Position numbers and translations under genes: made by a program. This document shows, one piece after another, positions 5,116 to 41,342 of a DNA stretch of 64,000 bases. The notes beneath the pieces are model-generated. The model ran no database searches. It saw nothing but the letters and a program-made list of their open reading frames with translations, and was not told the origin of the DNA. Source of the stretch: a virus; UHGV virus genome UHGV-0042229. The stretch is one strand, 5' to 3'. Position 1 is the first letter of the stretch; every line of letters starts with the position of its first letter.

Positions 5116-8103
5116 ATGAGCTTAAGCGATCAGGTGGTAATGGCCACCAGCATAGAAACGCTGATCGAGCTGCTAAAGAACCTGCCCGATTATGGGCGGG
5201 TTTCGTATGTGGTGACAGCGAAGGGAGACGAGGTAAAAACAGCGTTTGATATCGTCGATGCCTCAGCTCTTTTGGTATCCAATACTCTGGATGGGAAAAT
5301 TAATCCTGACTATCCCCAGGAACTTCAGCCGCGCGACCGGACCCGCGCATCCAGCCTTCTTCAGGTTAACCAGATATCCAAAGATTTGCGGCCAGCTCAG
5401 CTTACTGATTCCGGTTTATCCAGCCATGGTGCGCCGATAATTGGTGAGGACAATGCCGTTGAGTCAGGTAATGGACGGACCATGGGGATCATCAAAGCCT
5501 ATCAGGACGGCAATGCGGATCGGTATCGTGAGTACCTGATTGAACATGCGACCGAATTCGGAATACGACCTGAAAAGGTTGAATCAATGACGGCTCCGGT
5601 ACTGGTGCGCCGCCGGTTAACGAAGGTTGACCGTGTTCAGTTTGCCAAGGACTCAAATATTTCTGATCTCCAGGAAATGGCAGCCAGTGAAAAGGCTTTT
5701 GTTGATGCCGACAGCATAACTCCGGCGATGATGGCGCTGTTTAACCCATCAGAAAGCGGAGATCTGCTTAGCCGCAGTAATGACGCGTTTATTCGCGGAT
5801 TCATGACGCAAGTTGGTGCCACACAGGCTGCTGGCCTTGTAACGGAAGATGGGCGACCAACACGGCAACTTGTTGACCGTATACAAAACGCGATCTTTGC
5901 CAAGGCATATAAGGATGCGCGCCTGGTAAGAATGGTTGCAGAAGAACCTGATCCGGATATGCGTAATGTTCTGACGGCGCTTAATGCGGCAGCCAATGAT
6001 TTTGTCCAGATGCAGGCTTTATCAGGAGAAGCGCACAAGCAGGCTGTGACAACTATTGTTGATGGTATTGAGACAGCGGATAGTCTCGATAAAAAGGCGC
6101 TGGCGGCATTGAAAGATGCGGTAGACCTGGTAAGGCAATCGAAGGAGTCAGGCCAACATATTACCGATGTTATTGCTCAGGGGGATATGTTCAGCGAAAC
6201 AGCCCCGGAAGTGAAAGCTCTCGCGTTGTTCATCGTCGCGAATAACCGTAGCGCGAAGCGTATGGCCACCGCCTTTAAATTGATGGCTCAACGTATCAAT
6301 GATGAGTTACAGCACCAGGGCCAGGCGCTGGGGGATATGTTTGGCGGTGGTGATGTGTCGTTACAGGATATCCTTCGCCAGGTGTCTCAGGAACTGGAAA
6401 ACGAAGGCATGCAAGGGATATCCGGCGGTCTTTTCGAGTCCGTTTCCGGCGGTAGTTACAACGGTGTTGCTCCATATACCAGTTTGCTATTACATCGGGC
6501 ATCCGGCATCAAAGACATTATTCATCTGATCAGGCTGCTTTCCCGTACAGATCCCCAGGATGAACAGCTTGTACAAGTGCTTGCGCATTTTGTTCGAATG
6601 CCTGTTGCCGACGTGAATAAATGGTGCCGATTATTCGGTATCAGCAATTCGTTACTTCGCGGATTGTTAAATCACGCATCCTCCCTTGGGCGCGACGGCT
6701 TTGATGAGATAGCGCAGGCGATAAAAAACGGAGATATGCCACCAGCTATTGACTGGTTTTCCATTCGCCCAACCAGGGTGAAAGCATTCCTTAGCGCGGC
6801 GCATTCGGCATCACCATTGGCAGAAATGGTTCAGAGGTTGTCGCTCATATTCACAGACCATACCGCGTTGGGTGATTTGACTCTGGACGAGATGAAAGAA
6901 GCCTCCATTCAGTGGGCCGATCAACAAAATGAGGTTAACTCTGACTTCTTGCCAGCATTCAGGAAGGCCGTTAGTAAAGCTGATGATGCCCGTGGAATTC
7001 TGAGGGCATTTAAGGCATTGCAAAGTCAGGTTAATAAACATGTCGGTGATATCGATGGGGTAACGGCGGAAGGCAGGGATATCCTTAAAGAGCACGGCAT
7101 AACGCCAGAGTTTATTGATGAGATCAGGACTGATATGCAGCGTGAGGTCGTATCGTCCCTGCAAATCGTAGCCAGAGCGTTGGCGGATGCTAATCCGAAG
7201 AGTGCGGCCATTGTTAACCGTGTTATTGGTGATATTGAAGCATCGGAGGGCATGGGGGCGCTGAAACTCTTCCTTTCGCGAGCGTTTAATCCTAACGGCA
7301 ATATTCTCCCCGGCATTATTGGTGAGGCTAAAAAGTATGTCAGCGAAGAAGAACTTGAGCATCTTGACCAACTACTTAAGCGATTCTCATATAACCCGCA
7401 GACACGCTGGCAAATGAATCAGCAAAGTATGGGTTCGGTCCACGAGAAAGTGTTATCTGCCATGAACAGTGCGATCGCCAACTCATCCGTATCTGAAGAA
7501 AAAGCTCTTGAGTGGGCCGACTCTTTTATCACGGAAGAAGTGGAAGAAGCCCGCGCTGGACAGAATGGTGGGATAGACCTGCGCAAGGAACTTGCTGATA
7601 TTTATCGCCTGACCGGCGGTAAAATTTCGACCTTATCAAAGGTGGTTCACCACCAGGGAAGGGCATATGCAAATATTAATGGTGTTGTTGCTGTCAATTT
7701 GAACGATGAAAATGCAAGTGCACTGTGGCACGAGCTGGGTCATCATCTTGAGTACAGTAACCCTGGTTTGTTAGAGAAAGCCCGGTCATTCCTGAAGGCC
7801 AATGTTGAAGGGGATAAGCCATCTTTCGTTAATATCGGTGGGCGTGGCAAGCCTGAATGGTGCTTCAGATCTCGATTGAGTAATATTTATATGGCGAAGG
7901 TATACCCGCCAGCCTCAGTAAGTAACACCGGGAAAATTCGGCAGAAATCACCGACTATTTCCAAAACGTCAGCAACGGAAGTATTCTCTATGGCTCTTCA
8001 GTTGTATCATGACAAAGAGGCCGCTGCCGCATCACTGATGAATGGTGACGGATTGCTGGAACTGTTATTAGGTGTGGCAAAGGAGCTAAATAATGCAGAT
8101 TAA
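5116..8103 (+). CDS. ddrB: DdrB-like large head/antirestriction protein
   Basis: 995-aa ORF following darA/ddrA; P1 operon order. Confidence 0.5.
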   Translation: MSLSDQVVMATSIETLIELLKNLPDYGRVSYVVTAKGDEVKTAFDIVDASALLVSNTLDGKINPDYPQELQPRDRTRASSLLQVNQISKDLRPAQLTDSGLSSHGAPIIGEDNAVESGNGRTMGIIKAYQDGNADRYREYLIEHATEFGIRPEKVESMTAPVLVRRRLTKVDRVQFAKDSNISDLQEMAASEKAFVDADSITPAMMALFNPSESGDLLSRSNDAFIRGFMTQVGATQAAGLVTEDGRPTRQLVDRIQNAIFAKAYKDARLVRMVAEEPDPDMRNVLTALNAAANDFVQMQALSGEAHKQAVTTIVDGIETADSLDKKALAALKDAVDLVRQSKESGQHITDVIAQGDMFSETAPEVKALALFIVANNRSAKRMATAFKLMAQRINDELQHQGQALGDMFGGGDVSLQDILRQVSQELENEGMQGISGGLFESVSGGSYNGVAPYTSLLLHRASGIKDIIHLIRLLSRTDPQDEQLVQVLAHFVRMPVADVNKWCRLFGISNSLLRGLLNHASSLGRDGFDEIAQAIKNGDMPPAIDWFSIRPTRVKAFLSAAHSASPLAEMVQRLSLIFTDHTALGDLTLDEMKEASIQWADQQNEVNSDFLPAFRKAVSKADDARGILRAFKALQSQVNKHVGDIDGVTAEGRDILKEHGITPEFIDEIRTDMQREVVSSLQIVARALADANPKSAAIVNRVIGDIEASEGMGALKLFLSRAFNPNGNILPGIIGEAKKYVSEEELEHLDQLLKRFSYNPQTRWQMNQQSMGSVHEKVLSAMNSAIANSSVSEEKALEWADSFITEEVEEARAGQNGGIDLRKELADIYRLTGGKISTLSKVVHHQGRAYANINGVVAVNLNDENASALWHELGHHLEYSNPGLLEKARSFLKANVEGDKPSFVNIGGRGKPEWCFRSRLSNIYMAKVYPPASVSNTGKIRQKSPTISKTSATEVFSMALQLYHDKEAAAASLMNGDGLLELLLGVAKELNNAD

Positions 8104-14815: not shown

Positions 14816-17800
14816 ATGAACAAGCTATCTATGGGGGTGTTTCGCTGTTCAAGTGTCAGCGAAATATTGAAATACATTAGGGCAATAACATCTCACCGAG
14901 CGCCGATTAAATACGGCGTGGAAAAGGTGGAAGGCAAAAGCTATGACCGACTGCGCCGTGAGGCGAATCAGAAGGCGATAGATTTGCTTAATTCGCTGGT
15001 GGACGGCGCGACACTGACAGATGAACAGCGCCAGATCCTGGCTGGGTACACCGGTGAAGGCGGCATTGGCGGGTCCGTCTCCGAATATTACACACCAAAG
15101 CCGATCGCTGAAGGTGTCTGGGAGATCATGAAGCTCTACGGCGCGGACGTAGGTAACACTCTGGAACCATCGGCGGGAACCGGCGTTTTTAATGAGACAA
15201 AACCGGTTGGTACGGTGATGACCGCGACTGAGATCAGCAGTGTTTCCGGTCGTATAAACCAGCTGTTGCACCCGGAAGACAGCGTACAGATTTCTCCGTT
15301 CGAACAACTGGCTGTAAGCACGCCTAACGATTCATTCGACCATGTTGTGGGTAACGTTCCGTTCGGTGGTCGTGATAACACACGCAACATCGATAAGCCT
15401 TACGCAGAAGAAACGGACATGGGTTCTTACTTCATGCTCCGCATGCTGGACAAGATAAAGCCAGGCGGATTCATGTGCGTGATTGTGCCGCCGTCCATTG
15501 TTTCAGGTTCAAACATGAAGCGGTTACGCCTGCGCCTATCACGGAAAGCTGAATTTCTTGGTGCCCACCGCTTGCCTACCGGTACTTTTGACGCAAACGG
15601 GACCAGTACAGTTGTTGATGTGGTGCTGATGCGCAAACATCCGGCAGAGATGGCTGAGAAAATCCCCCTGGTGGATGAAAGCACTCTCGAATCGGCAAAT
15701 GTGCTTTGGCCAACGTTTATTTCTGGCAAGTGGTTTGAAAAGGACGGCCGCCGGTTTGTTCATGGCACCCAGGAAAAGGGCTTCCAGGGGCGTATTGAGG
15801 TTCGTGCCGACGGTCAGATTGATAACCAGGCTCTTAAAGCGAAGCTGATTCATCGTTTCGAAAGCCGTATCGACTGGTCTTTGCTCGATATGGCTGAACC
15901 GTCACCGACCGCAGACGTTGTTGGTGAAGGGGAAATGCGCCTGATTAATGGCGTATGGCAAAAATATGCTGGTGGTCGCTGGATTGAAGCTGATGCCGGG
16001 AAGGAACTTAAGATCGATGCTGCCAGTTATGGCGCGGATAGCTGGGAGGCTCTTCAGCGTAACCTGACTACAACAGAAGGCCGTCTCGGCATGACATTTA
16101 CCCAGATGGCAAATGTCCGCGATAAGTACACCACATCAATCAGCGACGATATGGTGCAGCTGGTGGACTGGATTAACAGCCAGCCTGAAAAATACCGTGA
16201 ACGCTTGTATCGCGGGGCGATGATTGGCCGGATGTTAATTGAATATCAGGACATGAAGGCCGCCGGGCATAGTGCTGAACAAATCGAACAGCAGCGCCTT
16301 TCTCTGGTATCCCGTTTGCAGGCAGAGATTGACCGTTTTGGTAACCCCGGTCGCGGTCCGATAGCGAAATTGTCGGGGAGCGGTGCGCGCGCCTGGTTTG
16401 CTTTCCGTGGTGCAATTAAGCTGGATGGCACTATTTCTGACGAGCTGACAGGGAAGCTGGTTACGCATGATTCCAGCGCAAGTTATGACTCCACCAGCTA
16501 TCAGGACACCCTGCGTTATCTCTATAGCGATCTCACCCGCGATCCAATCCAGCTCGATGATTTCCGCCTTGCGTTTACCGGCGAACTGCCAGCCAGTGAT
16601 GAAGAGTTGCTTAATTTATTGGCCAGCACCCCTGGTATTGCGGTTTCACCGTATGGCGGGATTGTTCCGTTCGCCCGCGCCACCAGCGGCGACATTAACG
16701 AGATAGTGGCTCCAAAACAGGAATTCCTCGCCACACTCCCCGACGGTCCAGTAAAGAACAACGTCCTTAATCAGCTGGCAGCTATCGAAGAGAAGCGCAT
16801 CAAGACGCCAGCAGAGAATATCCGGTTTAAGCTCAATAGCCGTTGGTTCGACCGTTCCGTCATTCTGGAATTTTTGCAGGAAAACGGCTATCCGGATCTG
16901 CGCTATGTGCAGTCAGTGCAGCTGGAAGGCGACGAAATGGTTTCTGACACCTATCACGGTGGTGATGGTCTGTTCGTCGGGCACCGATACGGTGTCGTCC
17001 AGCGCAAGGATAAAGAAACAGGTGAGATTCGCTACGAGTGGGACCGTAAATCAGGTGAAAACGCGACCGGGTTCCCGGCACAGCTGGAAAAGTATCTCAA
17101 TGGTGCGCGTATCGGTGGCAAAGATAGCGCGACGGCGAACGGCTACCGCGAGCAGATGGCACTGCTTGAGGACCAGTTCAATAAGTGGATCAAGACGCAC
17201 GATCGCTACGATGAGCTGGTTGCCAAATACAACGATGTGTTCAATAGCAATATCCCGTATGAACACTCTGGCGATCCGCTTGGGTTGAAGGGATTAAGCG
17301 GTAAGCGCCAGCCATTTGATTACCAGAATAGCGAGGTGCGCCGACTGTCCGAAGATGGGCGCGGCATCCTGGGCTTCGGCACCGGGCTGGGTAAAACCAC
17401 GACCGCGCTGGCGCTTGAGGCGTTCAACTATGAGAACGGTCGCTCCACCCGTACTGCGTATGTAGTGCCTAAATCAGTGCTGGAAAACTGGTATTACGAA
17501 GCAAAAGAATTCCTGAGTGAAGAGGCATTCAGTAACTACCTGTTCGTCGGTCTTGATGTGCTGATGGATGGCGATCAGATTCGCCAGGTGCAGGTGCTCG
17601 ATGAGAACGGTAAACCTGTTCTTGGTACTGATGGCACTCCAGTTATGCGCGATGCTCTTAAGCTGGCAGATGAAGCCACTATCACGGCGCGGATGAACGC
17701 GATCCCGCACTCAAATTACCGTGCAGTCGTGTTTACCAAAGAACAATACGCCCGCATTCCGCTACGTGATGACACCGTAGATGAGCATGCACAGGATATG

Positions 17801-20800
17801 CTTTATGACTTCGTTGCCGCCGGACGCGTAGCCAGCGCAATGGACTCCGACTCCCACCGCAAAGAGGCCGCGCGTCGCCGGGTATTGTCGGAGTATTCAG
17901 ATACCGGCACCGAAAAAGCAGAGAAGTATCCGTACTTTGAGGATATGGGCTTCGATAGTGTGATCGCTGACGAAGGTCACAACTACCGCAATAGCTATAA
18001 AAATGGTCGCGAAGCGTCACAACTGGCCTATCTGCCCACCAGCGCGGTGGCGCAATCGGCGCGAGATATGGCAATTAAAAACGCGTACCTGATGAAAAAG
18101 AATGGTGGGCGCGGGCCGGTTCTCCTGACTGCAACGCCAGTCGTTAACACCCCGATCGATGCATACAACATGCTTTCTCATGTTCTGCCGAAGGAATACT
18201 GGCAGAACATGGGGATCTACGGTCCTGATGACTTCGTTAAATTCTTCGGCAAGACCAGGCTGGAAACGGTACAGAAAATTAGCGGTGAAGTTGAAGAAAA
18301 AATGGCGCTGGTGGGCTTTGAAAACCTTGATGCGCTGCGCGGTATATTCCATCGCTGGGTAACGCTTAAAACGGCGGAAGACGTTAAGGATACCGTGGAG
18401 ATCCCGGAGCTGGACGAACACCAGCAGGATGCACCACTTACTGAAGAACAACTGGCGGCGTATGAAGAATTGCGTCAGCAGGCGGAAGCGGCGGCCAAAG
18501 CCAACAATGGCGTAACGACCTCGGTCAATGAAGACGGCGTGATTGAGCACGAGAAAGCCCGTCCGATCTTCTCAATAATCAGGGATATGGACCGCGTATG
18601 TACTGACATGGACCTGTACTATCGCCGGATCACCTATCGTTTCCTGCCGGAGTACGCCGATGCGGTGCAGCAGCTGGCGGACAGTTTGCCTAAACAAGCC
18701 ACCAGCGAAGACGACGACAGTGATGATTCAATCACGCAGCAATCGCAATACTCCCTGATAGATAAGGGCGAGTTTATTCAGTTGCAGGTTCCGGAAGCGT
18801 TCGAGCAGGAAGTGAATAAGCGCCTGGCCAGGTTTGGCATTGACGAACAGACCGTAACTCACCCCGTTACGCCCAAATACGCGAAGCTGATTGCCACGCT
18901 GAAGGAGTTTTTCCCGGAAGGGAAGCAAATCATCTTCACCGACGAAAAAACGCAGCACCAGAAGCTCAAGCGCATTATCTGCAATGTTCTTAACCTTGAA
19001 CCTTCAAAGGTAGGGATCCTGAATGCTCAGACGGTTGCCGAGGCAGGTAAAACCGGTAAGAAACTGAAAGCGGTTAAACCGCCGAAAGAGTTACCGGATG
19101 AACCAACAGATGCACAGATAGCGAAATACAACGAGCAAATGGCTCTGTATGACGCCTATATCGCGCAGCAAAATGAAATGTCGTTGGGCGGTCTGGAAAA
19201 GATTGCAGCCGACTTCCAGGAGGGCCGGACTCCGATCATCATCTGCAACAAAAAGGCAGAGGTGGGTATCAACCTGCATCGAGGAACGACTGACATCCAT
19301 CATCTGACGTTGCCATGGACTCCAGCCAGTATTGCGCAACGAAACGGTCGCGGTGCCCGAGTTGGCTCCAACCGTGCAAGCGTTCGCGTTCACTACTACT
19401 GCGGCAAGGGTTCTTTCGATGAATACCGACTGAAGACGCTGAAGCGTAAAGCAGGCTGGATCTCCGATATCCTCCGTTCAGATAAGTCAGAAATGGAGAA
19501 CGCCGACGCCAACGATATGATCGAAATGCAGATGTATACCGCTAAGGATGATGGCGAACGTCTGGCAATGATGCAGGTTCAAATGGATAAGGCGAAAGCT
19601 GCGAAACGCGCTCGCCAGAAAGAACAGGCTACTATCGACCTTCAGAACTACATCAAGGCGCAGCACGCAGCTGGTGAGGATGTGGAGGTACTTACCGCTG
19701 AATTGGAGCGAAGCAAAGCGGAACTTGAAAAGACCACCGCCGACGTCGCCAAATTCAAACAGGCGGTAATGGCCAAAGCAGCTGATAACGCAGACTGGAA
19801 GGCCCGCTGGGGGAGCGTCCATCACACAGACCGTATGTTGTTAGCACAGTATCGCGCGTCGTTGAAAAACGCCATTCAGCGCAAGGCTAATATCTCTCAA
19901 GCCATCTCCCGCTATGAGAAATTATTGAACCGTACTCAGAAGGCCGCGACGGATATCAAACGCCTGCGCCCGCTGGTGGAGGATGCAATAAATAAAGGCA
20001 TTCTGGATGTTGATCCTGACCTGGTTAACCATGCGAGTGAGTTCCTTGTTATCGGCGATCGCTCATGGCGTGTAGGCCAATACTACGATTGTGCCGGTGA
20101 TATCGTTCGCATTAAGTCGCTGGACTTCGACAGCCAGCGCGCAGACGTGGAGATCATCTTTACCTTCAAAGGCACCAAATCGGGTAACTGGGATGTGAAG
20201 ACGCTGGATAAACAGGTGGATGTAACTCCCGATGAAGATGCTGTTATGCAGAAAATCAGTGGTGGCGTCTCCATCGCCGGGATTAACGACATCATTTCCT
20301 GTGACGATTTCTACCGTTTCCAGCAGCGCGGCATGATCAAAATAACTGACTCGTACGGCGTTCAGACTACAGAGTCAGGCTATAGCATTGATTTTGTTGG
20401 TACCTATACGGACCCACTGAAGCATGCGGTTTACCCGGATCGCCGTGACGGCGCGCTGAAGTCGTCAATTGCAAAATGGGTGCTTGGTATGATGTCGGAA
20501 GGGAATAACCGCCAGATCCGTTCGGCAGAAACATTCCTGGTTGAATTGTTTGGCTCCAATTATGGCGATGTAATCGCGTCATACGGAGATACGCTATCCC
20601 CTGAAGCAATTCAGGAGAAAATAGCGGATGCGATCGCCAGAATGCCGGAAAAAACAAGCCAGGGGGCTACTCGTAACGGGGATTCTGAACTTGAAGTCAC
20701 CAATGCCATTTTCGGTACCAATGAGTTCCGGGCGTCAGATTATGAGATCACCACAGCACAGTTTGGCACCATTGGCATTTACAGCAATAAAGCCGAGATC

Positions 20801-21583
20801 AAGCAGGCAATGGACGCAGCAAGCGCGCGCATCGCAGCAGAACGGGAAGCCAATCTGAATCATGCAGTCGCCGCGCTGACTCAATCGTGGGTAACAGCAA
20901 TCAGGGAGGCCGCCACCACAGGGAAAATCACACCTGCAATAGCGGATGTCGTAAACGACGGCTCTAAATTTATGGATGCCTATCAAATGGATGCGGTGAA
21001 GTTGCCATCAGCCTATGGTCAACTCAGCTATCGCATGACCTACAACCTGGTATCAATGTTTTCCGACCTTGCCATCCTTGGGCTGGTGGATCTTAACGAG
21101 GTTACGCCGGAATTGCTCAGCATGCGCAAGAATCATGTGGAGATATTGCAGAGAATTAACACGGTTCTTGCCGGGCGCACCGATGAAGAGAAACAGGCCG
21201 ACGCTGATCGGATAAACCTAGCCCTTGGCAACATCACGGAGGAAGAGATTGCCGCCAGAAACGAGAAACAAGAAGAGTTATCATCAATACAGGGTGATGC
21301 CACCAGCATAGCTCAGTCTCTTGGTCTGAATTATCGCGTATCCACCGCCGACCTGAAGATGATGTACGCACCAAAATTCGCCGCTGGCGAGGTATTTGGG
21401 CTTCAGGAAGCCTCAGGCATGAAAGGCGTTCTTTTCCGTGCGAAAGACGCAATCAAGGCGAAATTCGGCGCTCGCTGGCTGCCAGCGAAGGCGAAGAACA
21501 GCGATTTCCCGGGTAACTGGTGGATTATCGAGACAAAACACAACGTGGCGGACGTTCTGGCCGTCATCCAACAATACGCATAA
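14816..21583 (+). CDS. darB: DarB antirestriction protein (N6-adenine methyltransferase domain fused to SF2 helicase)
   Basis: 2255 aa; MTase-like motifs EPSAGTGVF and GNVPFGG; helicase motifs GFGTGLGKTT and VIADEGHNY; length equals P1 DarB. Confidence 0.8.
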   Translation: MNKLSMGVFRCSSVSEILKYIRAITSHRAPIKYGVEKVEGKSYDRLRREANQKAIDLLNSLVDGATLTDEQRQILAGYTGEGGIGGSVSEYYTPKPIAEGVWEIMKLYGADVGNTLEPSAGTGVFNETKPVGTVMTATEISSVSGRINQLLHPEDSVQISPFEQLAVSTPNDSFDHVVGNVPFGGRDNTRNIDKPYAEETDMGSYFMLRMLDKIKPGGFMCVIVPPSIVSGSNMKRLRLRLSRKAEFLGAHRLPTGTFDANGTSTVVDVVLMRKHPAEMAEKIPLVDESTLESANVLWPTFISGKWFEKDGRRFVHGTQEKGFQGRIEVRADGQIDNQALKAKLIHRFESRIDWSLLDMAEPSPTADVVGEGEMRLINGVWQKYAGGRWIEADAGKELKIDAASYGADSWEALQRNLTTTEGRLGMTFTQMANVRDKYTTSISDDMVQLVDWINSQPEKYRERLYRGAMIGRMLIEYQDMKAAGHSAEQIEQQRLSLVSRLQAEIDRFGNPGRGPIAKLSGSGARAWFAFRGAIKLDGTISDELTGKLVTHDSSASYDSTSYQDTLRYLYSDLTRDPIQLDDFRLAFTGELPASDEELLNLLASTPGIAVSPYGGIVPFARATSGDINEIVAPKQEFLATLPDGPVKNNVLNQLAAIEEKRIKTPAENIRFKLNSRWFDRSVILEFLQENGYPDLRYVQSVQLEGDEMVSDTYHGGDGLFVGHRYGVVQRKDKETGEIRYEWDRKSGENATGFPAQLEKYLNGARIGGKDSATANGYREQMALLEDQFNKWIKTHDRYDELVAKYNDVFNSNIPYEHSGDPLGLKGLSGKRQPFDYQNSEVRRLSEDGRGILGFGTGLGKTTTALALEAFNYENGRSTRTAYVVPKSVLENWYYEAKEFLSEEAFSNYLFVGLDVLMDGDQIRQVQVLDENGKPVLGTDGTPVMRDALKLADEATITARMNAIPHSNYRAVVFTKEQYARIPLRDDTVDEHAQDMLYDFVAAGRVASAMDSDSHRKEAARRRVLSEYSDTGTEKAEKYPYFEDMGFDSVIADEGHNYRNSYKNGREASQLAYLPTSAVAQSARDMAIKNAYLMKKNGGRGPVLLTATPVVNTPIDAYNMLSHVLPKEYWQNMGIYGPDDFVKFFGKTRLETVQKISGEVEEKMALVGFENLDALRGIFHRWVTLKTAEDVKDTVEIPELDEHQQDAPLTEEQLAAYEELRQQAEAAAKANNGVTTSVNEDGVIEHEKARPIFSIIRDMDRVCTDMDLYYRRITYRFLPEYADAVQQLADSLPKQATSEDDDSDDSITQQSQYSLIDKGEFIQLQVPEAFEQEVNKRLARFGIDEQTVTHPVTPKYAKLIATLKEFFPEGKQIIFTDEKTQHQKLKRIICNVLNLEPSKVGILNAQTVAEAGKTGKKLKAVKPPKELPDEPTDAQIAKYNEQMALYDAYIAQQNEMSLGGLEKIAADFQEGRTPIIICNKKAEVGINLHRGTTDIHHLTLPWTPASIAQRNGRGARVGSNRASVRVHYYCGKGSFDEYRLKTLKRKAGWISDILRSDKSEMENADANDMIEMQMYTAKDDGERLAMMQVQMDKAKAAKRARQKEQATIDLQNYIKAQHAAGEDVEVLTAELERSKAELEKTTADVAKFKQAVMAKAADNADWKARWGSVHHTDRMLLAQYRASLKNAIQRKANISQAISRYEKLLNRTQKAATDIKRLRPLVEDAINKGILDVDPDLVNHASEFLVIGDRSWRVGQYYDCAGDIVRIKSLDFDSQRADVEIIFTFKGTKSGNWDVKTLDKQVDVTPDEDAVMQKISGGVSIAGINDIISCDDFYRFQQRGMIKITDSYGVQTTESGYSIDFVGTYTDPLKHAVYPDRRDGALKSSIAKWVLGMMSEGNNRQIRSAETFLVELFGSNYGDVIASYGDTLSPEAIQEKIADAIARMPEKTSQGATRNGDSELEVTNAIFGTNEFRASDYEITTAQFGTIGIYSNKAEIKQAMDAASARIAAEREANLNHAVAALTQSWVTAIREAATTGKITPAIADVVNDGSKFMDAYQMDAVKLPSAYGQLSYRMTYNLVSMFSDLAILGLVDLNEVTPELLSMRKNHVEILQRINTVLAGRTDEEKQADADRINLALGNITEEEIAARNEKQEELSSIQGDATSIAQSLGLNYRVSTADLKMMYAPKFAAGEVFGLQEASGMKGVLFRAKDAIKAKFGARWLPAKAKNSDFPGNWWIIETKHNVADVLAVIQQYA

Positions 21584-21616: not shown

Positions 21617-22057
21617 ATGGCCACACTATCTGATACAATAAAACCGAATAAAACATATCTTGAGGCGGTACTGCGTACGGCATTGTTAGGAAAGACAGAA
21701 GACGAATACGTTGATTTCTTCCTGTCAGGGCTACGCGGGCGATTACTGAAAAATCCCCGCCTGTACCGCAGCTATGGCCCATACTGGCCGGAAATTAAAA
21801 AATTATTACTGGAGCGCGGTTATGGTAATTTCGGTCGTCTCGTTGACCGTGACGTTCGCAAAATTTACCGTTATGACCGCCCGGCGCTAACACTCATAGC
21901 CGCGACGCTCTACAGCCAGGAGCGTTTTGATAATGGTCAGATATACTCAGCCTGGCATTTACTGCCAGTGCCTGAAGAAGTTGACGACCAGGACTATGAG
22001 TTTGAGTCTTACGATTTGGAAGTTGAAGCCTTGGCACAGGCTGGAGAGAAAACTTGA
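21617..22057 (+). CDS. hypothetical protein (Ulx-like position)
   Basis: 146-aa ORF immediately downstream of darB. Confidence 0.4.
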   Translation: MATLSDTIKPNKTYLEAVLRTALLGKTEDEYVDFFLSGLRGRLLKNPRLYRSYGPYWPEIKKLLLERGYGNFGRLVDRDVRKIYRYDRPALTLIAATLYSQERFDNGQIYSAWHLLPVPEEVDDQDYEFESYDLEVEALAQAGEKT

Positions 22058-22302
22058 AAAAGCGATACTACACAGTAAAGCATGGGACGCTACGAGCATT
22101 ACAAGAGTTTGCTGATAAGCATAACGTTGAGGTGCGCAGGGAAGGGGGAAGTAAAGCTCTGCGCATGTACCGTCCGGACGGGAAATGGCGTACGGTCGTC
22201 GATTTCAAAACTAACAGTGTTCCCCAGGGCGTCCGCGACCGGGCATTCGAAGAATGGGAGCAGATCATCATAGATAATGCATTGCTTCTCAATGCTGATT
22301 GA
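22054..22302 (+). CDS. hypothetical small protein (Lxc-like position)
   Basis: 82-aa ORF overlapping the upstream stop by 4 nt. Confidence 0.4.
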   Translation: MKKRYYTVKHGTLRALQEFADKHNVEVRREGGSKALRMYRPDGKWRTVVDFKTNSVPQGVRDRAFEEWEQIIIDNALLLNAD

Positions 22303-22310
22303 GTTTTGTT

Positions 22311-22335
22311 GGCCCGGTTTGCACCGGGCGTTTCA
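22311..22335 (+). terminator. possible terminator hairpin
   Basis: GCCCGGT-TTGC-ACCGGGC followed by GTTTCAC, between convergent genes. Confidence 0.3.
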
Positions 22336-22384
22336 CAAACAATCAACTGGTTTGTAGTTCCTGCGGCGAGATGAATTATTAATA

Positions 22385-22993
22385 TTATCGTGGTGCCGAT
22401 GATGCGATAGCCTGTATGATGTTATCAATATCGTTATCGTTCAGCATGAATATAGGTACACCATTAGAGTTTGCATTTTTTTCAGTGCTCATCAAACAAA
22501 GCCCCTCATACATGCCGCGAGTTTTTTTGAAATTGGCGACTGATGGAGTGGTGTAATTTCCTTTAAAGTGCATTCCGGCTGATTCATAAAAAGGAACCAA
22601 ATCAGACTGGCAAATCAAAGCGACCTCATTTGGAAATGCAAGTATTTCTGCCAGTATATTACTTCCAAGTCCATTACCACGATATTGCTCATATACATAT
22701 ATTTTATGACAGTACAACGGAAAATTTCCCGATGGATGTCCGAAGATTAAGGCGTATCCGAACAAGTTTTCTTCATTAGTAAAGCCCATAATGCGCAAAT
22801 GACCGGCTCGGTAACACTCTTCAAAAACGTTAATTATGTAGCTTCTCGCTGCTTTCAGCTCCTCTTCTGTCGGGAACATCATCAACCCCATAAGCGATGG
22901 AGTATAGACCAGATCCTGAAGAATCCCATTAGCTTCATTTTCGAAAATTAGCGGTAAGTGCGGTACAATTTCATTTGCCGAGGTATTAGACAT
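22385..22993 (-). CDS. GNAT-family N-acetyltransferase
   Basis: Acetyl-CoA-binding motif YEQYRGNGLGSNIL; gene and flanks are conspicuously AT-rich. Confidence 0.7.
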   Translation of the reverse strand: MSNTSANEIVPHLPLIFENEANGILQDLVYTPSLMGLMMFPTEEELKAARSYIINVFEECYRAGHLRIMGFTNEENLFGYALIFGHPSGNFPLYCHKIYVYEQYRGNGLGSNILAEILAFPNEVALICQSDLVPFYESAGMHFKGNYTTPSVANFKKTRGMYEGLCLMSTEKNANSNGVPIFMLNDNDIDNIIQAIASSAPR

Positions 22994-23192
22994 AGTATGG
23001 TGAGTCCTTTGTTTTCAAAGGACTCATGTTATCAGTGATAATCGTTTGTTGTAATAGTGTTGATAAAATAATTTTCTATTATGTAAGCAAGCTCATTTTT
23101 ATGACGGGTAATGCAAAAAAAAATAGAATCAAAAAACTAAAAAATAATAATTCATGGGGTTTTACACCATCAAAAGTCCCCACTATAAATTA

Positions 23193-23834
23193 TTAGAAAT
23201 AATTATGCTTGCCTGTTAATACCCCTTTCGGCACTTTTTTTTGTTCCAGTGTCTGGGTACCCAGAATTATGTTAATAAGTGGACTTAGTAACGATGGTTC
23301 CTGGCGGGCTTCAACTTCTCCAGCCATTGCCCTGATGTAGTCGGCGCTGGCAACGTTGTTGTATTCCGTCGCAAAGCAACATAGTAACGTCAGAACATGC
23401 TCTGTCGTTATTTCGCTCCAGTTGATGTTGAAAAATTCATCGCCTTTTTTATCGTGTTCGGAATCGAAGATGCTTTGGTGGAGGATGTATTTGCCGGATT
23501 CCTTGCGCGGTAACTTGATCGCTTTCTGGCGTTCCAGCTCCTTGTAAATCTGCATTGCTTCAATCAGTACCGGCCTGCCGTTCATGAAGGGATCGCGCAA
23601 CCTTACACGCTGGCCAACTCGACCAGTAATAAAGCTGTTTTCCTCTTCCACCAGCACGATAAAACCCTTTTCCTCTTTTTCTCGCAATTCGCGCAGCAGC
23701 TGGAGTTCCATATCGCGGCGGCGTTCAGGGTAGCTGGTCCGCTCAGCCATTATCAGCTCGTTATTGATCCATGCAGCAGTCATTGACGCCGGTTTGCCGA
23801 CGCTCATCGAAACAACGCATATTTTCTTATCCAT
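23193..23834 (-). CDS. hypothetical protein (P1 mat position)
   Basis: ORF downstream of ref; start set at MDKKICVV... after an AGGGGG RBS (ORF track extends to 23981). Confidence 0.45.
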   Translation of the reverse strand: MDKKICVVSMSVGKPASMTAAWINNELIMAERTSYPERRRDMELQLLRELREKEEKGFIVLVEEENSFITGRVGQRVRLRDPFMNGRPVLIEAMQIYKELERQKAIKLPRKESGKYILHQSIFDSEHDKKGDEFFNINWSEITTEHVLTLLCCFATEYNNVASADYIRAMAGEVEARQEPSLLSPLINIILGTQTLEQKKVPKGVLTGKHNYF

Positions 23835-24023
23835 AGCGCCCCCTACAAAAAAGAAAAGCCACCAGCGGCGGCTTAGCAATACAACTGAAGGTAGCGCCCG
23901 GTACTCAGACTGTGCCGTCCATGGAATATTTGAAAAGGGATCCATCCGTACCGGGCATGTGATGATTCTGACTGAAGTCACTTGTCAGTTGTCAATCATT
24001 TATCATTAAAAATAATATATTTA

Positions 24024-24584
24024 TTAGTGCATGATGTTTGCCATCTCATAGGCGTCAGCCAGTAACTCCATCTCTGACTTGTTCAGCAGGGTGAATTCTT
24101 TCTTGCCTCCAACCACACCATCGGCATGAACAGGGACCAGCCAGGGGTATTTTGCTCTTACTTCAGCCGGTGCTGCATGCTGGTGGTGCCATCTACAAAG
24201 TGGCAATTGCTTTTTATGACAACCCGGCGCGGTACGACCGGCGATATGGTGCAGAGACACCTCATTAGATATTACTCCATGCATATAGCAGGCAATGCAG
24301 GGGAGAGTGCCAAGAGCATTGGCGATGCGCCGTTCCTCCGCCGTTGGTGTTCTCCCCTTCAAGCCACGAGATTTTATTTTTACCGCGCTTTTCCGCGTTT
24401 TGCTGGCTGGTGGGCGCTCTTTCTGTTTAGCGATACGGCGGTCGATAGTATCTCGCATTTTCTGATATTGAGATTCTCGCCAGACCGGATCAGCCAACTT
24501 CTCCCGTTGCCGAGCGATCGCTCGTTCTCTGGCTGCCTTCTGCCACTTGCGGCACTGTTCAATTTTTTGTTCGATTGTTTTCAT
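24024..24584 (-). CDS. ref: Ref recombination-enhancement HNH endonuclease
   Basis: 186 aa, MKTIEQKIEQCRKWQKAARER..., Cys/His-rich HNH-like core; matches P1 Ref as recalled. Confidence 0.85.
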   Translation of the reverse strand: MKTIEQKIEQCRKWQKAARERAIARQREKLADPVWRESQYQKMRDTIDRRIAKQKERPPASKTRKSAVKIKSRGLKGRTPTAEERRIANALGTLPCIACYMHGVISNEVSLHHIAGRTAPGCHKKQLPLCRWHHQHAAPAEVRAKYPWLVPVHADGVVGGKKEFTLLNKSEMELLADAYEMANIMH

Positions 24585-24830: not shown

Positions 24831-25142
24831 TTATTTCATCATGGAAGCTGTTAATGCTTTGGACCTTGCTGAACTGATTGAGAGGGCTTTGTCAACGTGC
24901 CCCAAAAATTCGCCAAACTCAGACATCACTTTGGCAAAACCGCGCCGTGCTTCTTCCTCGGTGGCATTCATCACGAAATGTTCAGCACTACGCATACTTT
25001 TGACAGGGAACGCAACGGATATTGAGTCAATATCAGGCATTCTATCGCTCAACTTTACAGTGACAATGACGGCTGGCGACTGAATATTAGTGCTTACAGA
25101 CAGCACTACATATTTTCCGTCGATGTTGAAATCCTTTCTCAT
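24831..25142 (-). CDS. hypothetical protein between cre and ref (cra position)
   Basis: 103-aa ORF downstream of cre on the same strand. Confidence 0.4.
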   Translation of the reverse strand: MRKDFNIDGKYVVLSVSTNIQSPAVIVTVKLSDRMPDIDSISVAFPVKSMRSAEHFVMNATEEEARRGFAKVMSEFGEFLGHVDKALSISSARSKALTASMMK

Positions 25143-25192: not shown

Positions 25193-26224
25193 CTAATCAC
25201 CATCTTCCAGCAGGCGCACCATTGCCCCCGTTTCACTATCCAGATTACGGATATAGTTCATGACAATATTTACGTTGGTCCAGCCACCAGCTTGCATGAT
25301 CTCCGGTATTGAAACTCCGGCGCGGGCCATATCTCGCGCGGCTCCGACACGGGCACTGTGTCCAGACCAGGCCAGGTACCTCTGACCAGAGTCATCCTTA
25401 GCCCCGTAAATCAATCGGTGAGTTGCTTCAAAAATCCCTTCCAGGGCGCGAGTTGATAGCTGGCTGGTGGATGATGGCGAGGCAACACCATTTTTTCTGA
25501 CCCGGCAAAACAAGTAGTTATTCGGATCATCAGCCACACCAGAGACAGAAATCCATCGCTCGACCAGTTTAGTTACCCCCAGGCTAAGTGCCTTCTCTAC
25601 ACCTGCGGTGCTAACCAGCGTTTTCGTTCTGCCAATATGGATTAACATTCTCCCACCGTCAGTACGTGAGATATCTTTAACCCTGATCCTGGCAATTTCG
25701 GCTATACGTAACAGGGTGTTATAAGCAATCCCCAGAAATGCCAGATTACGTATATCCTGGCAGCGATCGCTATTTTCCATGAGTGAACGAACCTGGTCGA
25801 AATCAGTGCGTTCGAACGCTAGTGCCTGTTTTGCACGTTCACCGGCATCAACGTTTTCTTTTCGGATCCGCCGCATGACCAGTGAAACAGCATTGCTGTC
25901 ACTTGGTCGTGGCAGCCCGGACCGACGATGAAGCATGTTTAGCTGGCCCAAATGTTGCTGGATAGTTTTTACTGCCAGACCGCGCGCCTGAAGATATAGA
26001 AGATAATCGCGAACATCTTCAGGTTCTGCGGGAAACCATTTCCGGTTATTCAATTTGCACCATGCCGCCCATGACCGGCAAACGGACAGAAGCATTTTCC
26101 AGGTATGCTCAGAAAACGCCTGGCGATCCCTGAACATATCCATCAGGTTCTTGCGAACCTCATCACTCGTTGCATCGACCGGCAATGCAGGCAAATTTTG
26201 GTGTACGGTCAGTAAATTGGACAT
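25193..26224 (-). CDS. cre: Cre tyrosine site-specific recombinase
   Basis: 343-aa translation MSNLLTVHQNLPALPVDATSDEVRKNLMDMF...MVRLLEDGD is the P1 Cre sequence as recalled, barring a few conservative differences. Confidence 0.97.
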   Translation of the reverse strand: MSNLLTVHQNLPALPVDATSDEVRKNLMDMFRDRQAFSEHTWKMLLSVCRSWAAWCKLNNRKWFPAEPEDVRDYLLYLQARGLAVKTIQQHLGQLNMLHRRSGLPRPSDSNAVSLVMRRIRKENVDAGERAKQALAFERTDFDQVRSLMENSDRCQDIRNLAFLGIAYNTLLRIAEIARIRVKDISRTDGGRMLIHIGRTKTLVSTAGVEKALSLGVTKLVERWISVSGVADDPNNYLFCRVRKNGVASPSSTSQLSTRALEGIFEATHRLIYGAKDDSGQRYLAWSGHSARVGAARDMARAGVSIPEIMQAGGWTNVNIVMNYIRNLDSETGAMVRLLEDGD

Positions 26225-35271: not shown

Positions 35272-36833
35272 ATGAAAATGACAAGTATTCAACAACGTGC
35301 AGAGCTTCATCGTCAAATCTGGCAAATTGCTAACGATGTCAGGGGTTCGGTCGATGGATGGGATTTTAAGCAATACGTTCTGGGCGCACTTTTCTACCGT
35401 TTTATCAGCGAAAATTTTTCCAGCCATATGGAAGCCGGTGATGACAGTATCTGTTATGCGAAACTGGATGACAGCGTAATTACTGATGACATTAAAGACG
35501 ATGCCATCAAAACTAAAGGCTACTTCATCTACCCCAGTCAGCTTTTCTGCAACGTAGCTGCGAAAGCAAATACCAATGACAGACTGAATGCGGATTTAAA
35601 CAGCATCTTCGTTGCTATCGAAAGTTCTGCTTACGGTTACCCTTCAGAAGCTGACATCAAAGGTTTGTTTGCTGATTTCGATACCACCAGTAACCGCCTG
35701 GGTAACACCGTTAAGGATAAAAATGCCCGCCTGGCCGCGGTTCTGAAAGGGGTTGAAGGGTTAAAGCTTGGCGACTTTAACGAACATCAGATTGACCTGT
35801 TCGGCGATGCCTATGAGTTCCTGATTTCTAACTATGCGGCAAATGCCGGTAAGTCAGGCGGTGAGTTCTTTACACCGCAGCACGTCTCCAAGCTGATTGC
35901 ACAACTGGCTATGCACGGGCAGACCAGCGTTAACAAAATCTACGACCCGGCAGCGGGTTCCGGCTCACTGTTGTTGCAGGCGAAAAAACAGTTTGATAAC
36001 CATATCATCGAAGAAGGTTTTTCGGTCAGGAAATCAACCATACGACCTATAACCTGGCGCGTATGAACATGTTTTTGCACAACATCAACTACGACAAGTT
36101 TGATATCAAGCTGGGCAATACGCTGACTGAACCGCACTTCAGAGATGAAAAACCGTTTGATGCCATCGTTTCTAACCCGCCGTATTCGGTGAAATGGATT
36201 GGCAGCGATGACCCGACGCTGATTAACGATGAGCGTTTTGCCCCGGCTGGCGTTCTGGCCCCCAAATCCAAAGCTGACTTTGCGTTTGTATTACATGCGC
36301 TGAACTATCTTTCGGCCAAAGGTCGTGCTGCGATTGTCTGCTTCCCGGGTATTTTTTACCGTGGCGGCGCAGAGCAGAAAATCCGTCAGTATCTGGTCGA
36401 TAATAACTATGTCGAAACCGTAATTTCACTGGCTCCGAACCTGTTCTTTGGCACCACCATTGCCGTAAACATTCTGGTTCTGTCCAAACATAAAACGGAT
36501 ACCAACGTTCAGTTTATTGATGCCAGCGAACTGTTCAAAAAAGAGACCAACAACAATATCCTGACCGATGCCCATATCGAACAGATTATGCAGGTATTTG
36601 CCAGCAAGGAAGATGTTGCTCATCTGGCGAAATCTGTTGCGTTTGAGACTGTTGTCGCGAATGACTATAACCTGTCGGTAAGCAGCTATGTGGAAGCCAA
36701 AGATACCCGCGAAGTTGTAGATATCACTGAACTGAATGCCGAACTGAAAACCACCGTCAGCAAAATCGACCAATTGCGCAAAGATATTGATGCGATTGTG
36801 GCTGAAATTGAAGGCTGCGAGGTGCAGAAATGA
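35272..36833 (+). pseudogene. hsdM: type IC HsdM (EcoR124-family) interrupted by a -1 frameshift
   Basis: Two ORFs (35272..36066 and 36063..36833) together cover an HsdM with FxGxG-like AAGSGSLL and NPPY; reading frame switches at the T5 run 36018..36022. Confidence 0.85.
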
Positions 36834-38104
36834 GCGAGTTGAGTTATCTGGAAAAATTGCTGGATGGGGTTGAGGTTGAGTGGAAATCTTTGGGTGAAAT
36901 TGCCACTAAAATTTACTCAGGGGGAACCCCGGATACAAAAAGAAAAGAGTATTGGGAGAATGGAACTATTCCCTGGATGAGTTCTGGCGAAGTGAACTTA
37001 AAAAATATTGAAAGGACAGAGAAATATATTACTGAGGCTGGATTAAATAACTCTAGTGCCAAATTAGTACCGAGAAACTCTGTAGTCATAGCCTTGGCTG
37101 GTCAGGGAAAAACTCGAGGTAAAGTAGCAAGAATCCGTATCGCATTAGCTACTAATCAATCACTTGCAGCACTTACATTTGATGAAAAGAAATTCAGTTC
37201 CGATTACGTATTCCATTTTTTAGAGACTCAGTATGAGAGTTTGCGTCAAATATCATCTGGAAACAGCGGACGCGGCGGACTAAATCTGCAAATGATTTCA
37301 GCATACAAAATCCCAATTCCCTGCCCGGATAATCCGGAAAAATCCCTTGCCATCCAGTCTGAAATCGTTCGGATTCTGGACAAATTCAGCGAGCTTACAG
37401 CAGAGCTTACAGCAGAGCTTAACATGCGTAAAAAACAGTACAACTACTATCGCGACCAGTTGTTGCGTTTTAAAGAGGGTGAGGTTGAGTGGAAGACTTT
37501 GGGGGAAATTGGAGATTTTACATATGGATATGCAGCCAAAGCCATGGATTCAGGAGATGCCCGTTTCGTGAGAATTACTGACATAAATAAAGACGGGAAG
37601 CTATCGAAAGAAAACCCAATGTACGTTGAATTAAATGAGGAAAATGAGAAATATACCTTAGACAAAAATGATTTACTCATGGCAAGAACTGGGGCAACCT
37701 TTGGTAAAACAATGATTTTTGAAGAAGATTATCCAGCAGTATACGCTGGTTTTTTAATAAAGTTGAACCTAAATAAAACGATTATTAATGCCAAATATTA
37801 CTGGCACTTTGCACAAAGTGATTTTTTTTGGGAACAGGCTAATAAATTAGTATCTGGTGGTGGGCAACCACAGTTTAATGCTAATGCACTGAAACAAGTC
37901 AGAGTACCTATTCCATACCCATCTCACCCTCAAAAATCTTTAGACGAACAGGGGCGTATTGTGGATATTCTGGATAAGTTTGATGCAATCGCAGCTTCCA
38001 TCACCGAAGGTCTCCCGCGTGAAATCGAGTTGCGCCAGAAACAATACGAGTACTATCGTGATTTACTGTTCAGTTTCCCGAAACCTGAAACTGTCAGTAA
38101 TTAA
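36830..38104 (+). CDS. hsdS: type IC specificity subunit HsdS
   Basis: Conserved N-terminus [24 protein letters not shown], central repeat TAELTAEL, C-terminal conserved region [27 protein letters not shown], two variable TRDs. Confidence 0.85.
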
Positions 38105-38225
38105 TTGACCATTGCTACCGACCGGACCACCTTAACATCCGGTCTGTATATAGACTATTTTTTACGTGCCGGAAGTCACCCTTAACTCCCTTCCGGCCCT
38201 TGCCAGACGGCACAAAGGATGCGCT

Positions 38226-41200: not shown

Positions 41201-41342
41201 CACCGAAAATGGCACAGAATTAAACGAAACATTACCAAAACTTAGTCCGTTGAATCCGCAATATAAAACGAAAAAACAGGCAGTTTTCCAGAAAATCGTC
41301 TCGTTTATTGAGAAGTTTAAAGGGGTAGGCGGAAAAATATAG
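38226..41342 (+). CDS. hsdR: type IC restriction endonuclease subunit HsdR
   Basis: 1038 aa from [20 protein letters not shown]...; helicase motifs TGSGKT and DECH; ORF track start at 38166 lies upstream in frame. Confidence 0.9.

Follow-up and report, generated by a model that had tools for sequence, protein, structure and literature searches.

An exchangeable acetyltransferase cassette in the lxc-mat slot of a P1-like plasmid-prophage, a candidate defence or conflict gene

Here we show that in the virus genome UHGV-0042229, a P1-like plasmid-prophage of which a 64-kb stretch (64,000 nucleotides, referred to below as the window) was analysed, the slot between lxc and mat is filled by an AT-rich, horizontally exchanged cassette of 890 bp (22303-23192), whose sole gene (22385-22993, - strand) encodes a 202-aa acetyltransferase of the GNAT superfamily. 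Because the family of this protein recurs both in anti-phage defence islands and in the slot that holds the restriction system of P1, the gene is a reasonable candidate for a defence function. The reading that we favour, tentatively and at somewhat less than an even chance, is that of a conflict gene expressed in the lysogen, whose product would transfer acetyl groups to a primary amine, either of a phage protein or of a small cation. The gene is ordinary cargo of the lxc-mat slot and no new mechanism is demonstrated here, the protein family itself being without prior characterisation. An initial annotation of the window had listed a tRNA-acetylating toxin, an antibiotic-modifying enzyme and an anti-defence factor as possible roles; the evidence points to a role outside that list, namely a lysogen-expressed defence or conflict gene with an amine N-acetyltransferase-like core.

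The lxc-mat slot and its occupants

The cassette comprises all of the DNA that separates the stop codons of two convergent genes, and no more; these genes form the conserved flanks of the slot. On the left lies lxc (bof; 22054-22302, + strand), identified by a full-length match to PHROG 2160 and named Lxc in P1, RCS47 and SJ46; on the right lies mat (23193-23945, - strand; stop codon 23193-23195), which matches PHROG 1837 and whose 5' end was placed by analogy with the 753-bp mat of P1, RefSeq plasmids annotating 642 bp. When the region is aligned with RCS47, 673R5, JL22 and pNADC1036, similarity is lost right after the lxc stop codon and regained at the mat stop codon, and the segment 22303-23192 matches the variable DNA to the base. 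The initial annotation had placed the gene, between darB-side and mat/ref-side genes, at the site where P1 carries its res-mod system. This is borne out by P1 itself (NC_005856), in which the order is cre, c8, ref, mat, res, mod, lxc, ulx and the EcoP1I res and mod genes lie exactly between mat and lxc. The site is empty in RCS47 (39 bp), holds a RelA/SpoT-family gene in SJ46 and vB_EcoM-673R5, which in SJ46 we take to be the defence protein CapRel, and contains an unrelated 316-aa gene in JL22.

The composition of the segment sets it apart from the rest of the window, as had been noticed initially. Its G+C fraction (GC) of 0.380, against a window mean of 0.481, is the minimum among all 890-bp stretches of the 64 kb (0.25% of 890-bp windows are as low, none lower). 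The acetyltransferase coding sequence has a GC of 0.40 and a third-position GC (GC3) of 0.39, with values of 0.46-0.58 for GC3 in neighbouring genes, and GC falls to 0.28 in the 199 bp upstream of the gene (22994-23192), the AT-rich leader of about 200 bp that the initial annotation had described.

A wider view of the slot comes from 80 IMG/VR loci fetched via Lxc, in 72 of which both flanks were present and the slot could be measured. It is either empty or occupied by one of about 12 unrelated cassettes, all with GC 0.32-0.43. Eight of the 72 loci are empty (39 bp in seven, 29 bp in the eighth). A 434/435-aa SIR2 protein (PADLOC PDC-S25, ThsA) is found at 13 loci, a 346-aa protein (PDC-S31) at ten, a CapRel-type RelA/SpoT protein (PDC-S33, E = 5e-87) at nine, and an EcoP1I-like res-mod pair, judged without a PADLOC scan and encoding Res of 970 aa and Mod of 653 aa as in P1, at seven. 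A 316-aa protein (PDC-S34) accounts for six loci, a JukA-containing cassette (PADLOC JukA) for four, a two-gene cassette for 346-aa and 169-aa proteins (L030; no PADLOC match) for four, an AraC/EAL-like cassette for four (no match for the one open reading frame (ORF) scanned) and a 135-aa lipoprotein for one (no match). The GNAT gene, in two forms, occupies six of the 72 loci and has no PADLOC match. A survey of P1-like elements names type III restriction-modification and CapRel among their defence systems (10.1101/2025.09.12.675607). Several of the other occupants match PADLOC candidate families only (PDC-S25, S31 and S34). The compact and precisely bounded hot spot therefore yields a short list of candidate single-gene defence systems, in which occupants with weak or no defence annotation are short candidates amenable to testing and the GNAT gene is one candidate unrecognised by defence databases.

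How the cassettes move is suggested by the flanks. In the IMG/VR loci the mat allele co-varies with cassette type: Mat is 90.1% identical to the window copy next to a 1196-bp cassette, 97.2-97.7% next to a 1402-bp cassette, and 99-100% next to the 889-bp GNAT cassette. These identities imply that recombination tracts carrying the cassettes reach into mat, and the co-variation makes homologous recombination in the flanks the more likely route of exchange. Transposition was considered and set aside, as no transposon-like ends were seen; a repeat search for such ends or for direct repeats flanking the cassette returned short chance repeats only. The GNAT cassette has all the marks of lxc-mat cargo: it lies between convergent stop codons, its flanks are conserved, and relatives hold alternative occupants.

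The cassette is rare. In PLSDB, 17 P1-like plasmids carry the 890-bp segment at 99% identity or more and two others at 97% (97-99.9% overall); they come from Escherichia coli, E. fergusonii and Salmonella. A second group of plasmids, with a different leader, matches it over about 630 bp at roughly 85% identity. Among 5426 complete E. coli genomes, 699 (about 13%) contain the ulx-lxc backbone and 19 contain the cassette, on plasmids every time and never on the chromosome; this corresponds to about 3% (19/699) of the genomes with a P1-like backbone, and the cassette is AT-rich there too. P1, P7, RCS47 and SJ46 lack the gene, and it was not found in 50,697 deposited phage genomes by tblastn with the window protein or by distant blastn with a homologue from another context (L004). 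The earlier proposal, that the segment is cargo gained by horizontal transfer at a locus known to vary, is upheld by this distribution. Nowhere did the gene appear as a backbone-like component of canonical P1-family genomes, since it is absent from the canonical phages and retains the same AT-rich composition in the approximately 3% of P1-like plasmids that carry it.

In one of the plasmids, pHYEC7-mcr1 (NZ_KX518745.1; locus L003, 1-5286), an ISApl1-mcr-1-pap2-ISApl1 composite transposon sits inside the GNAT gene and splits it into two annotated fragments; the cassette has here been the point of entry for colistin resistance. Resistance genes spread by P1-like phage-plasmids include mcr-1 and blaCTX-M.

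The acetyltransferase and its expression signals

The initial annotation had called a single GNAT gene from the motif YEQYRGNGLGS, and that call holds: the motif lies in the one 202-aa ORF, whose product passes the Pfam gathering cut-offs of Acetyltransf_10 (27.3 vs 23.6 bits) and Acetyltransf_1 (25.6 vs 20.7) and falls just short of that of Acetyltransf_7 (25.3, cut-off 27). The protein bears the marks of the superfamily, with a curated profile match, motif A (Q/R-x-x-G-x-G/A) and the GNAT alpha/beta fold. In the acetyl-CoA motif R105-G-N-G108-L-G110, residues R105, G106, G108 and G110 are invariant across 18 family members, as are Y94, C95, H96, K97, E102, C128 and Y136 elsewhere in the protein. 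Judged by these motifs, it is predicted to be an intact acetyl-CoA-dependent N-acetyltransferase. An AF2 model (pLDDT 88) places the GNAT core after three helices (residues 4-62) and before a C-terminal helix (186-199); these N- and C-terminal elements are family-specific, and both an N-terminal helix motif, 'ENEAxGILQDL', and a C-terminal one, 'PIFMLND.DI', are conserved in the 18 members. Values of dN/dS against five homologues are 0.10-0.16 and show that the protein is under purifying selection. Members are acidic throughout (pI 4.3-5.9), which fits a cationic substrate.

Homologues are few. An exhaustive profile search of 1.84 billion representative proteins gave 57 clusters at E <= 1e-10, while a word-indexed search gave 23 and a further profile search 91, every one of them named merely 'GNAT family N-acetyltransferase'. 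Full-length members are single-domain proteins of roughly 190-210 aa, past which generic GNAT cores alone match; the protein belongs to a small, discrete and rare gammaproteobacterial family. PHROG 10454, a group with no assigned function, matches it over its full length.

One solved structure stands out. PDB entry 9S30 (chain 9s30_A, 'GNAT family N-acetyltransferase') is identical at 201 of 202 residues, the sole difference being V29A, and has a 30-residue tag in front; by sequence it is effectively the window protein. We found no paper citing this entry; its existence suggests that an answer on function may already be in the hands of others. Otherwise the structure search, against a library of entries released up to 2026-04-08, returned generic GNATs only, and among viral protein structure models none scored above TM 0.5.

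The nearest solved relatives by profile, besides 9S30, are serotonin N-acetyltransferase AANAT (E = 7e-5), the integron cassette protein 3i9s, diamine/thialysine acetyltransferases and plant NATA1-like enzymes. In an alignment to full-length AANAT (1kuv numbering), H96 falls on His122, Y136 on Tyr168 and C128 on Cys160, with Tyr94 in place of His120; His122 and Tyr168 are the catalytic residues of AANAT. The catalytic core thus most resembles those of the small-amine acetyltransferases AANAT and SSAT, sharing with them the equivalents of the catalytic His and Tyr, both invariant in the family. It differs in that only residues 72-146 align with AANAT and SSAT1/2, at about 17-21% identity and TM-scores of 0.38-0.5, and since full-length homology was looked for and not found, we do not file the protein as a member of either group.

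Upstream of the gene, the only block kept across contexts is TGATAACAT (23026-23034, - strand), a probable extended -10 element inside an imperfect palindrome, CTGAT-N3-ATSAG. P1-like, other-plasmid, IncFII and lambdoid-prophage contexts share it, and the conserved form CTGMTAAYATSAG reads as an extended -10 (TGnTAAYAT) within the palindrome. We infer that TGATAACAT is the putative promoter of the GNAT gene itself; a consensus promoter scan made no call at these positions. DNA similarity between contexts runs from about 45 nt upstream of the ATG to near the stop codon, and it is this confinement to a short leader and the coding sequence that identifies the mobile unit as a minimal promoter plus gene.

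The leader also contains a hairpin (23001-23026, - strand) with a perfect 11-bp stem and a 4-nt loop, found by repeat search, which holds the Shine-Dalgarno sequence AAGGA and folds as RNA with -17.9 kcal/mol (z = -4.0). It is a trait of the window lineage and is not kept in more distant contexts. As the final base of the putative -10 is also the first base of the hairpin stem, transcription that starts from the gene's own promoter may leave out the 5' arm, whereas read-through from mat would contain the whole hairpin; this geometry suggests that the hairpin would form in read-through transcripts and not in those from the gene's own promoter. On the other side of the gene, between the convergent lxc and GNAT genes, the GC-rich hairpin GCCCGGT-TTGC-ACCGGGC (22312-22329), read from the sequence, is likely a bidirectional terminator. 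A terminator scan made no call there because the T-run is short, and a comparable hairpin is present in the 39-bp empty site of RCS47. A search of 22200-23300 against Rfam found no RNA family, and the AT-rich leader therefore holds no known small-RNA antitoxin or riboswitch.

Homologue contexts and the role of the gene

Homologues of the GNAT gene recur on mobile elements and in genomic islands. They are present in another group of plasmid-like contigs of roughly 80-114 kb, in IncFII contigs of Klebsiella plasmids (71-146 kb) downstream of repA, in a Pseudomonas aeruginosa island with HipBA, and in a lambdoid prophage of Raoultella. There the homologue is a moron on the strand opposite that of the lytic genes, with replication genes on one side and the gene for the Q antiterminator on the other. 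Other neighbourhoods are rich in defence genes. The P. orientalis copy is enclosed by an AbiJ-like gene, a Septu PtuA-like ATPase (E = 2e-180) and Gabija GajA/GajB; that of P. qingdaonensis adjoins the same AbiJ-like gene together with a PemK toxin; that on an integrase-bearing element has at its sides an SMC/MComp1/CTD2 system, a QueC-like gene and a Druantia-type pair of UvrD and DEAD/MZB helicases; and that of Enterobacter mori lies next to two large NACHT proteins. The neighbouring genes differ in each context and none is common to all. Residence in defence hot spots and islands is accordingly seen on both levels, with res-mod, CapRel, SIR2 and JukA sharing the P1 slot and Gabija, Septu, AbiJ, Druantia-like and NACHT genes present in the islands.

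The AbiJ-like gene encodes a 421-aa protein (AbiJ_NTD3 + Abi_C) and lies divergently upstream of the homologue in both of those Pseudomonas species (4819-6084 in L099, 7327-8592 in L104). The two genes could be a conserved pair of that branch, or could mark one shared island.

In the reading that we favour, the cassette is a self-contained, horizontally exchanged single-gene unit, with its own putative promoter, leader and coding sequence, residing in the lxc-mat hot spot of P1-like plasmid-prophages. The gene would be expressed in the lysogen and would serve it in conflicts with other mobile elements, by anti-phage activity or superinfection exclusion. The enzyme may acetylate a primary amine, either a lysine or the N-terminus of an incoming phage protein or a small cation needed by the phage, such as a polyamine, and the trigger would be the arrival of this substrate upon infection, instead of a separate sensor or antitoxin. 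If the gene is protective against phages, acetylation of proteins or small amines would be added to the known immune chemistries, and host-range barriers between phages and phage-plasmids would be partly explained. A stronger version, possible and on balance doubtful, is that the family is a single-gene immune effector working by acetylation, in which the N- and C-terminal helices serve as a recognition or gating module and the protein, silent in the lysogen, acetylates a phage protein or a phage-required amine on infection to halt replication. In that case tRNA pyrophosphorylation (CapRel), NAD depletion (SIR2) and acetyl transfer would all be effector chemistries that the P1 hot spot can interchange.

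A number of observations weigh against a defence role. The argument for it is purely one of guilt by association, and hot spots and islands also take up cargo unrelated to defence, of which the lipoprotein and AraC/EAL-like cassettes of this slot may be examples. Some contexts are uninformative: the homologue neighbours repA in IncFII plasmids and an insertion sequence in a Serratia islet, and the Methylophaga locus is no clearer. The protein has no model match in PADLOC-DB 2.0 at E <= 1, and we found no experimental paper on it in the literature, where related items amounted to general surveys and a single report on GNAT integron cassettes. The gene is dispensable for maintenance, given that the mcr-1 transposon interrupts it in pHYEC7-mcr1; alleles truncated at the C-terminus circulate as well, including one in Klebsiella pneumoniae that lacks the last ~20 residues, and they speak for the same dispensability. 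Finally, its nearest characterised relatives are amine acetyltransferases of metabolism, so that simple detoxification, or a metabolic function, would suit the protein just as well.

Such a role is the best of the alternatives, and we consider it unlikely. The gene would then be a lysogenic-conversion enzyme for detoxification or resistance, unrelated to phages, that acetylates an exogenous small molecule for the host; an aminoglycoside-like, streptothricin-like or peptide-nucleotide antibiotic, an amino-acid antimetabolite, or a gut biogenic amine or polyamine could be the substrate. The profile relatives named above, from AANAT and 3i9s to the thialysine/diamine and NATA1-like acetyltransferases, are what one would expect of it, an acidic protein suits cationic drugs or amines, and the gene is found on plasmids and prophages of gut Enterobacterales from humans and livestock. 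A known antibiotic-modifying enzyme such as AAC, SAT, PAT or ArsN, a class first listed for this gene, is nevertheless not what the searches recovered: among NCBIfam models, including those for resistance and toxins, nothing matched at E <= 0.01, the best scores being 12-13 bits against cut-offs of 86-171 (ArsN1a, 12.4 vs 170), and the AMRFinder layer of PLSDB predicts no resistance gene over the GNAT gene in 22 plasmids, though it flags mcr-1 on pHYEC7-mcr1. Nor does the gene show any link to integrons or resistance transposons. A useful resistance gene would not usually belong to so rare a family, and members are found repeatedly in defence islands and in a slot whose other occupants are defence systems. 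If the enzyme does detoxify, it would represent an unrecognised resistance-like trait on transducing elements.

By analogy with TacT, AtaT and ItaT, the protein might instead be an abortive-infection toxin that acetylates aminoacyl-tRNA and is kept silent, in the manner of CapRel, by a fused antitoxin or sensor located in its N- or C-terminal extension; this is quite improbable. The slot is shared with what we take to be the fused toxin-antitoxin CapRel of SJ46, the conserved N-terminal helices and the 'PIFMLND.DI' helix have no counterpart in minimal GNATs, and a structured leader that sequesters the ribosome-binding site suggests tight control of expression. Against this, the initial annotation saw no obvious antitoxin partner, and rightly so: no antitoxin-like ORF is present in the cassette and none is conserved across about 11 contexts. 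Two candidate partners were rejected. For a 56-aa ORF on the + strand (23026-23196), the upstream stretch that encodes it fails to align with the 85% variant pNADC1036 or with other contexts, and a 95-aa ORF overlapping the start of the gene in L004 shares only non-coding leader with other contexts, in broken frames. No toxin GNAT model or structure matched at E <= 0.01, the 'bacterial toxin' GNAT 7byy ranking only 48th in Foldseek, and the acidity of the whole family is a poor fit for tRNA binding. The truncated K. pneumoniae allele speaks slightly against an essential C-terminal cis-antitoxin, unless such alleles are dead. The tRNA-acetylating toxin among the roles first listed is thus disfavoured.

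Least probable of all, and very unlikely, is a counter-defence or establishment factor for the phage-plasmid, which by analogy with AcrVA5 and Cas12a would acetylate a host immune protein and complement the Dar anti-restriction operon: it is suggested by adjacency to that operon only, as the cassette directly adjoins darB (14816-21583, + strand), ulx (21617-22057, + strand; its product classed as anti-restriction) and lxc, and in E. coli the gene is confined to mobile elements, never the chromosome, yet it is transcribed convergently to the operon from its own putative promoter, it is absent from the 50,697 phage genomes, and both the alternative occupants that can be recognised in the slot and the chromosomal neighbours of its homologues are defence systems, not anti-defence, which tells equally against the anti-defence factor of the initial annotation.

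Comparison with known systems and other variable sites

The closest parallels to the favoured role as a conflict gene lie in the slot itself. Like CapRel of SJ46 and EcoP1I res-mod of P1, the GNAT gene is AT-rich, sits in the same lxc-mat position, appears to bring its own expression signals, and is exchangeable between backbones that are 95-99% identical. CapRel-type genes in the IMG/VR cassettes also lie on the same strand as mat, while mod and res are on the opposite strand. The systems differ in fold and chemistry: CapRel pyrophosphorylates tRNA and has a fused sensor, and EcoP1I cleaves and methylates DNA. The GNAT protein, unlike CapRel, is a single domain of 202 aa with no recognisable sensor, and its defence role is only inferred.

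With the GNAT toxins TacT, AtaT, ItaT and KacT the protein shares the fold, carriage on mobile elements and a possible link to phage defence; it differs in being acidic, in having no adjacent antitoxin gene in about 11 contexts and in matching no toxin model. To our knowledge, type II GNAT toxins always have an adjacent antitoxin gene. AcrVA5, a small GNAT anti-CRISPR from mobile elements, acetylates a protein lysine of Cas12a; it acts in the direction of counter-defence, is much smaller and has no detected similarity to the window protein, whose contexts favour defence. A further likeness, drawn by description and not by sequence, is to Brc113 and BrcP, stand-alone GNAT-domain integron cassettes reported among the phage-defence cassettes termed BRiCs (10.1101/2024.07.02.601719). 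In both cases a single GNAT-domain gene travels as a mobile cassette, and the carrier differs, being an integron there and a phage-plasmid hot spot here.

Beyond mat the window continues with ref (24024-24584), c8 (24831-25142) and cre (25193-26224), all on the - strand. In the P1-like plasmid pNADC1036IncYphage (L002) a DUF4145 gene (6556-7278) separates mat from ref, which have no such gene between them in the window, and this junction could be another small site of variation. Elsewhere in the window, at 36063-41342, a type I restriction-modification set comprises the 3' part of hsdM (ending at 36833), hsdS (36830-38104) and hsdR (38166-41342). It is a second defence cargo of the P1-like element, at a separate locus, and its hsdS is the sole other stretch of the window with GC <= 0.40.

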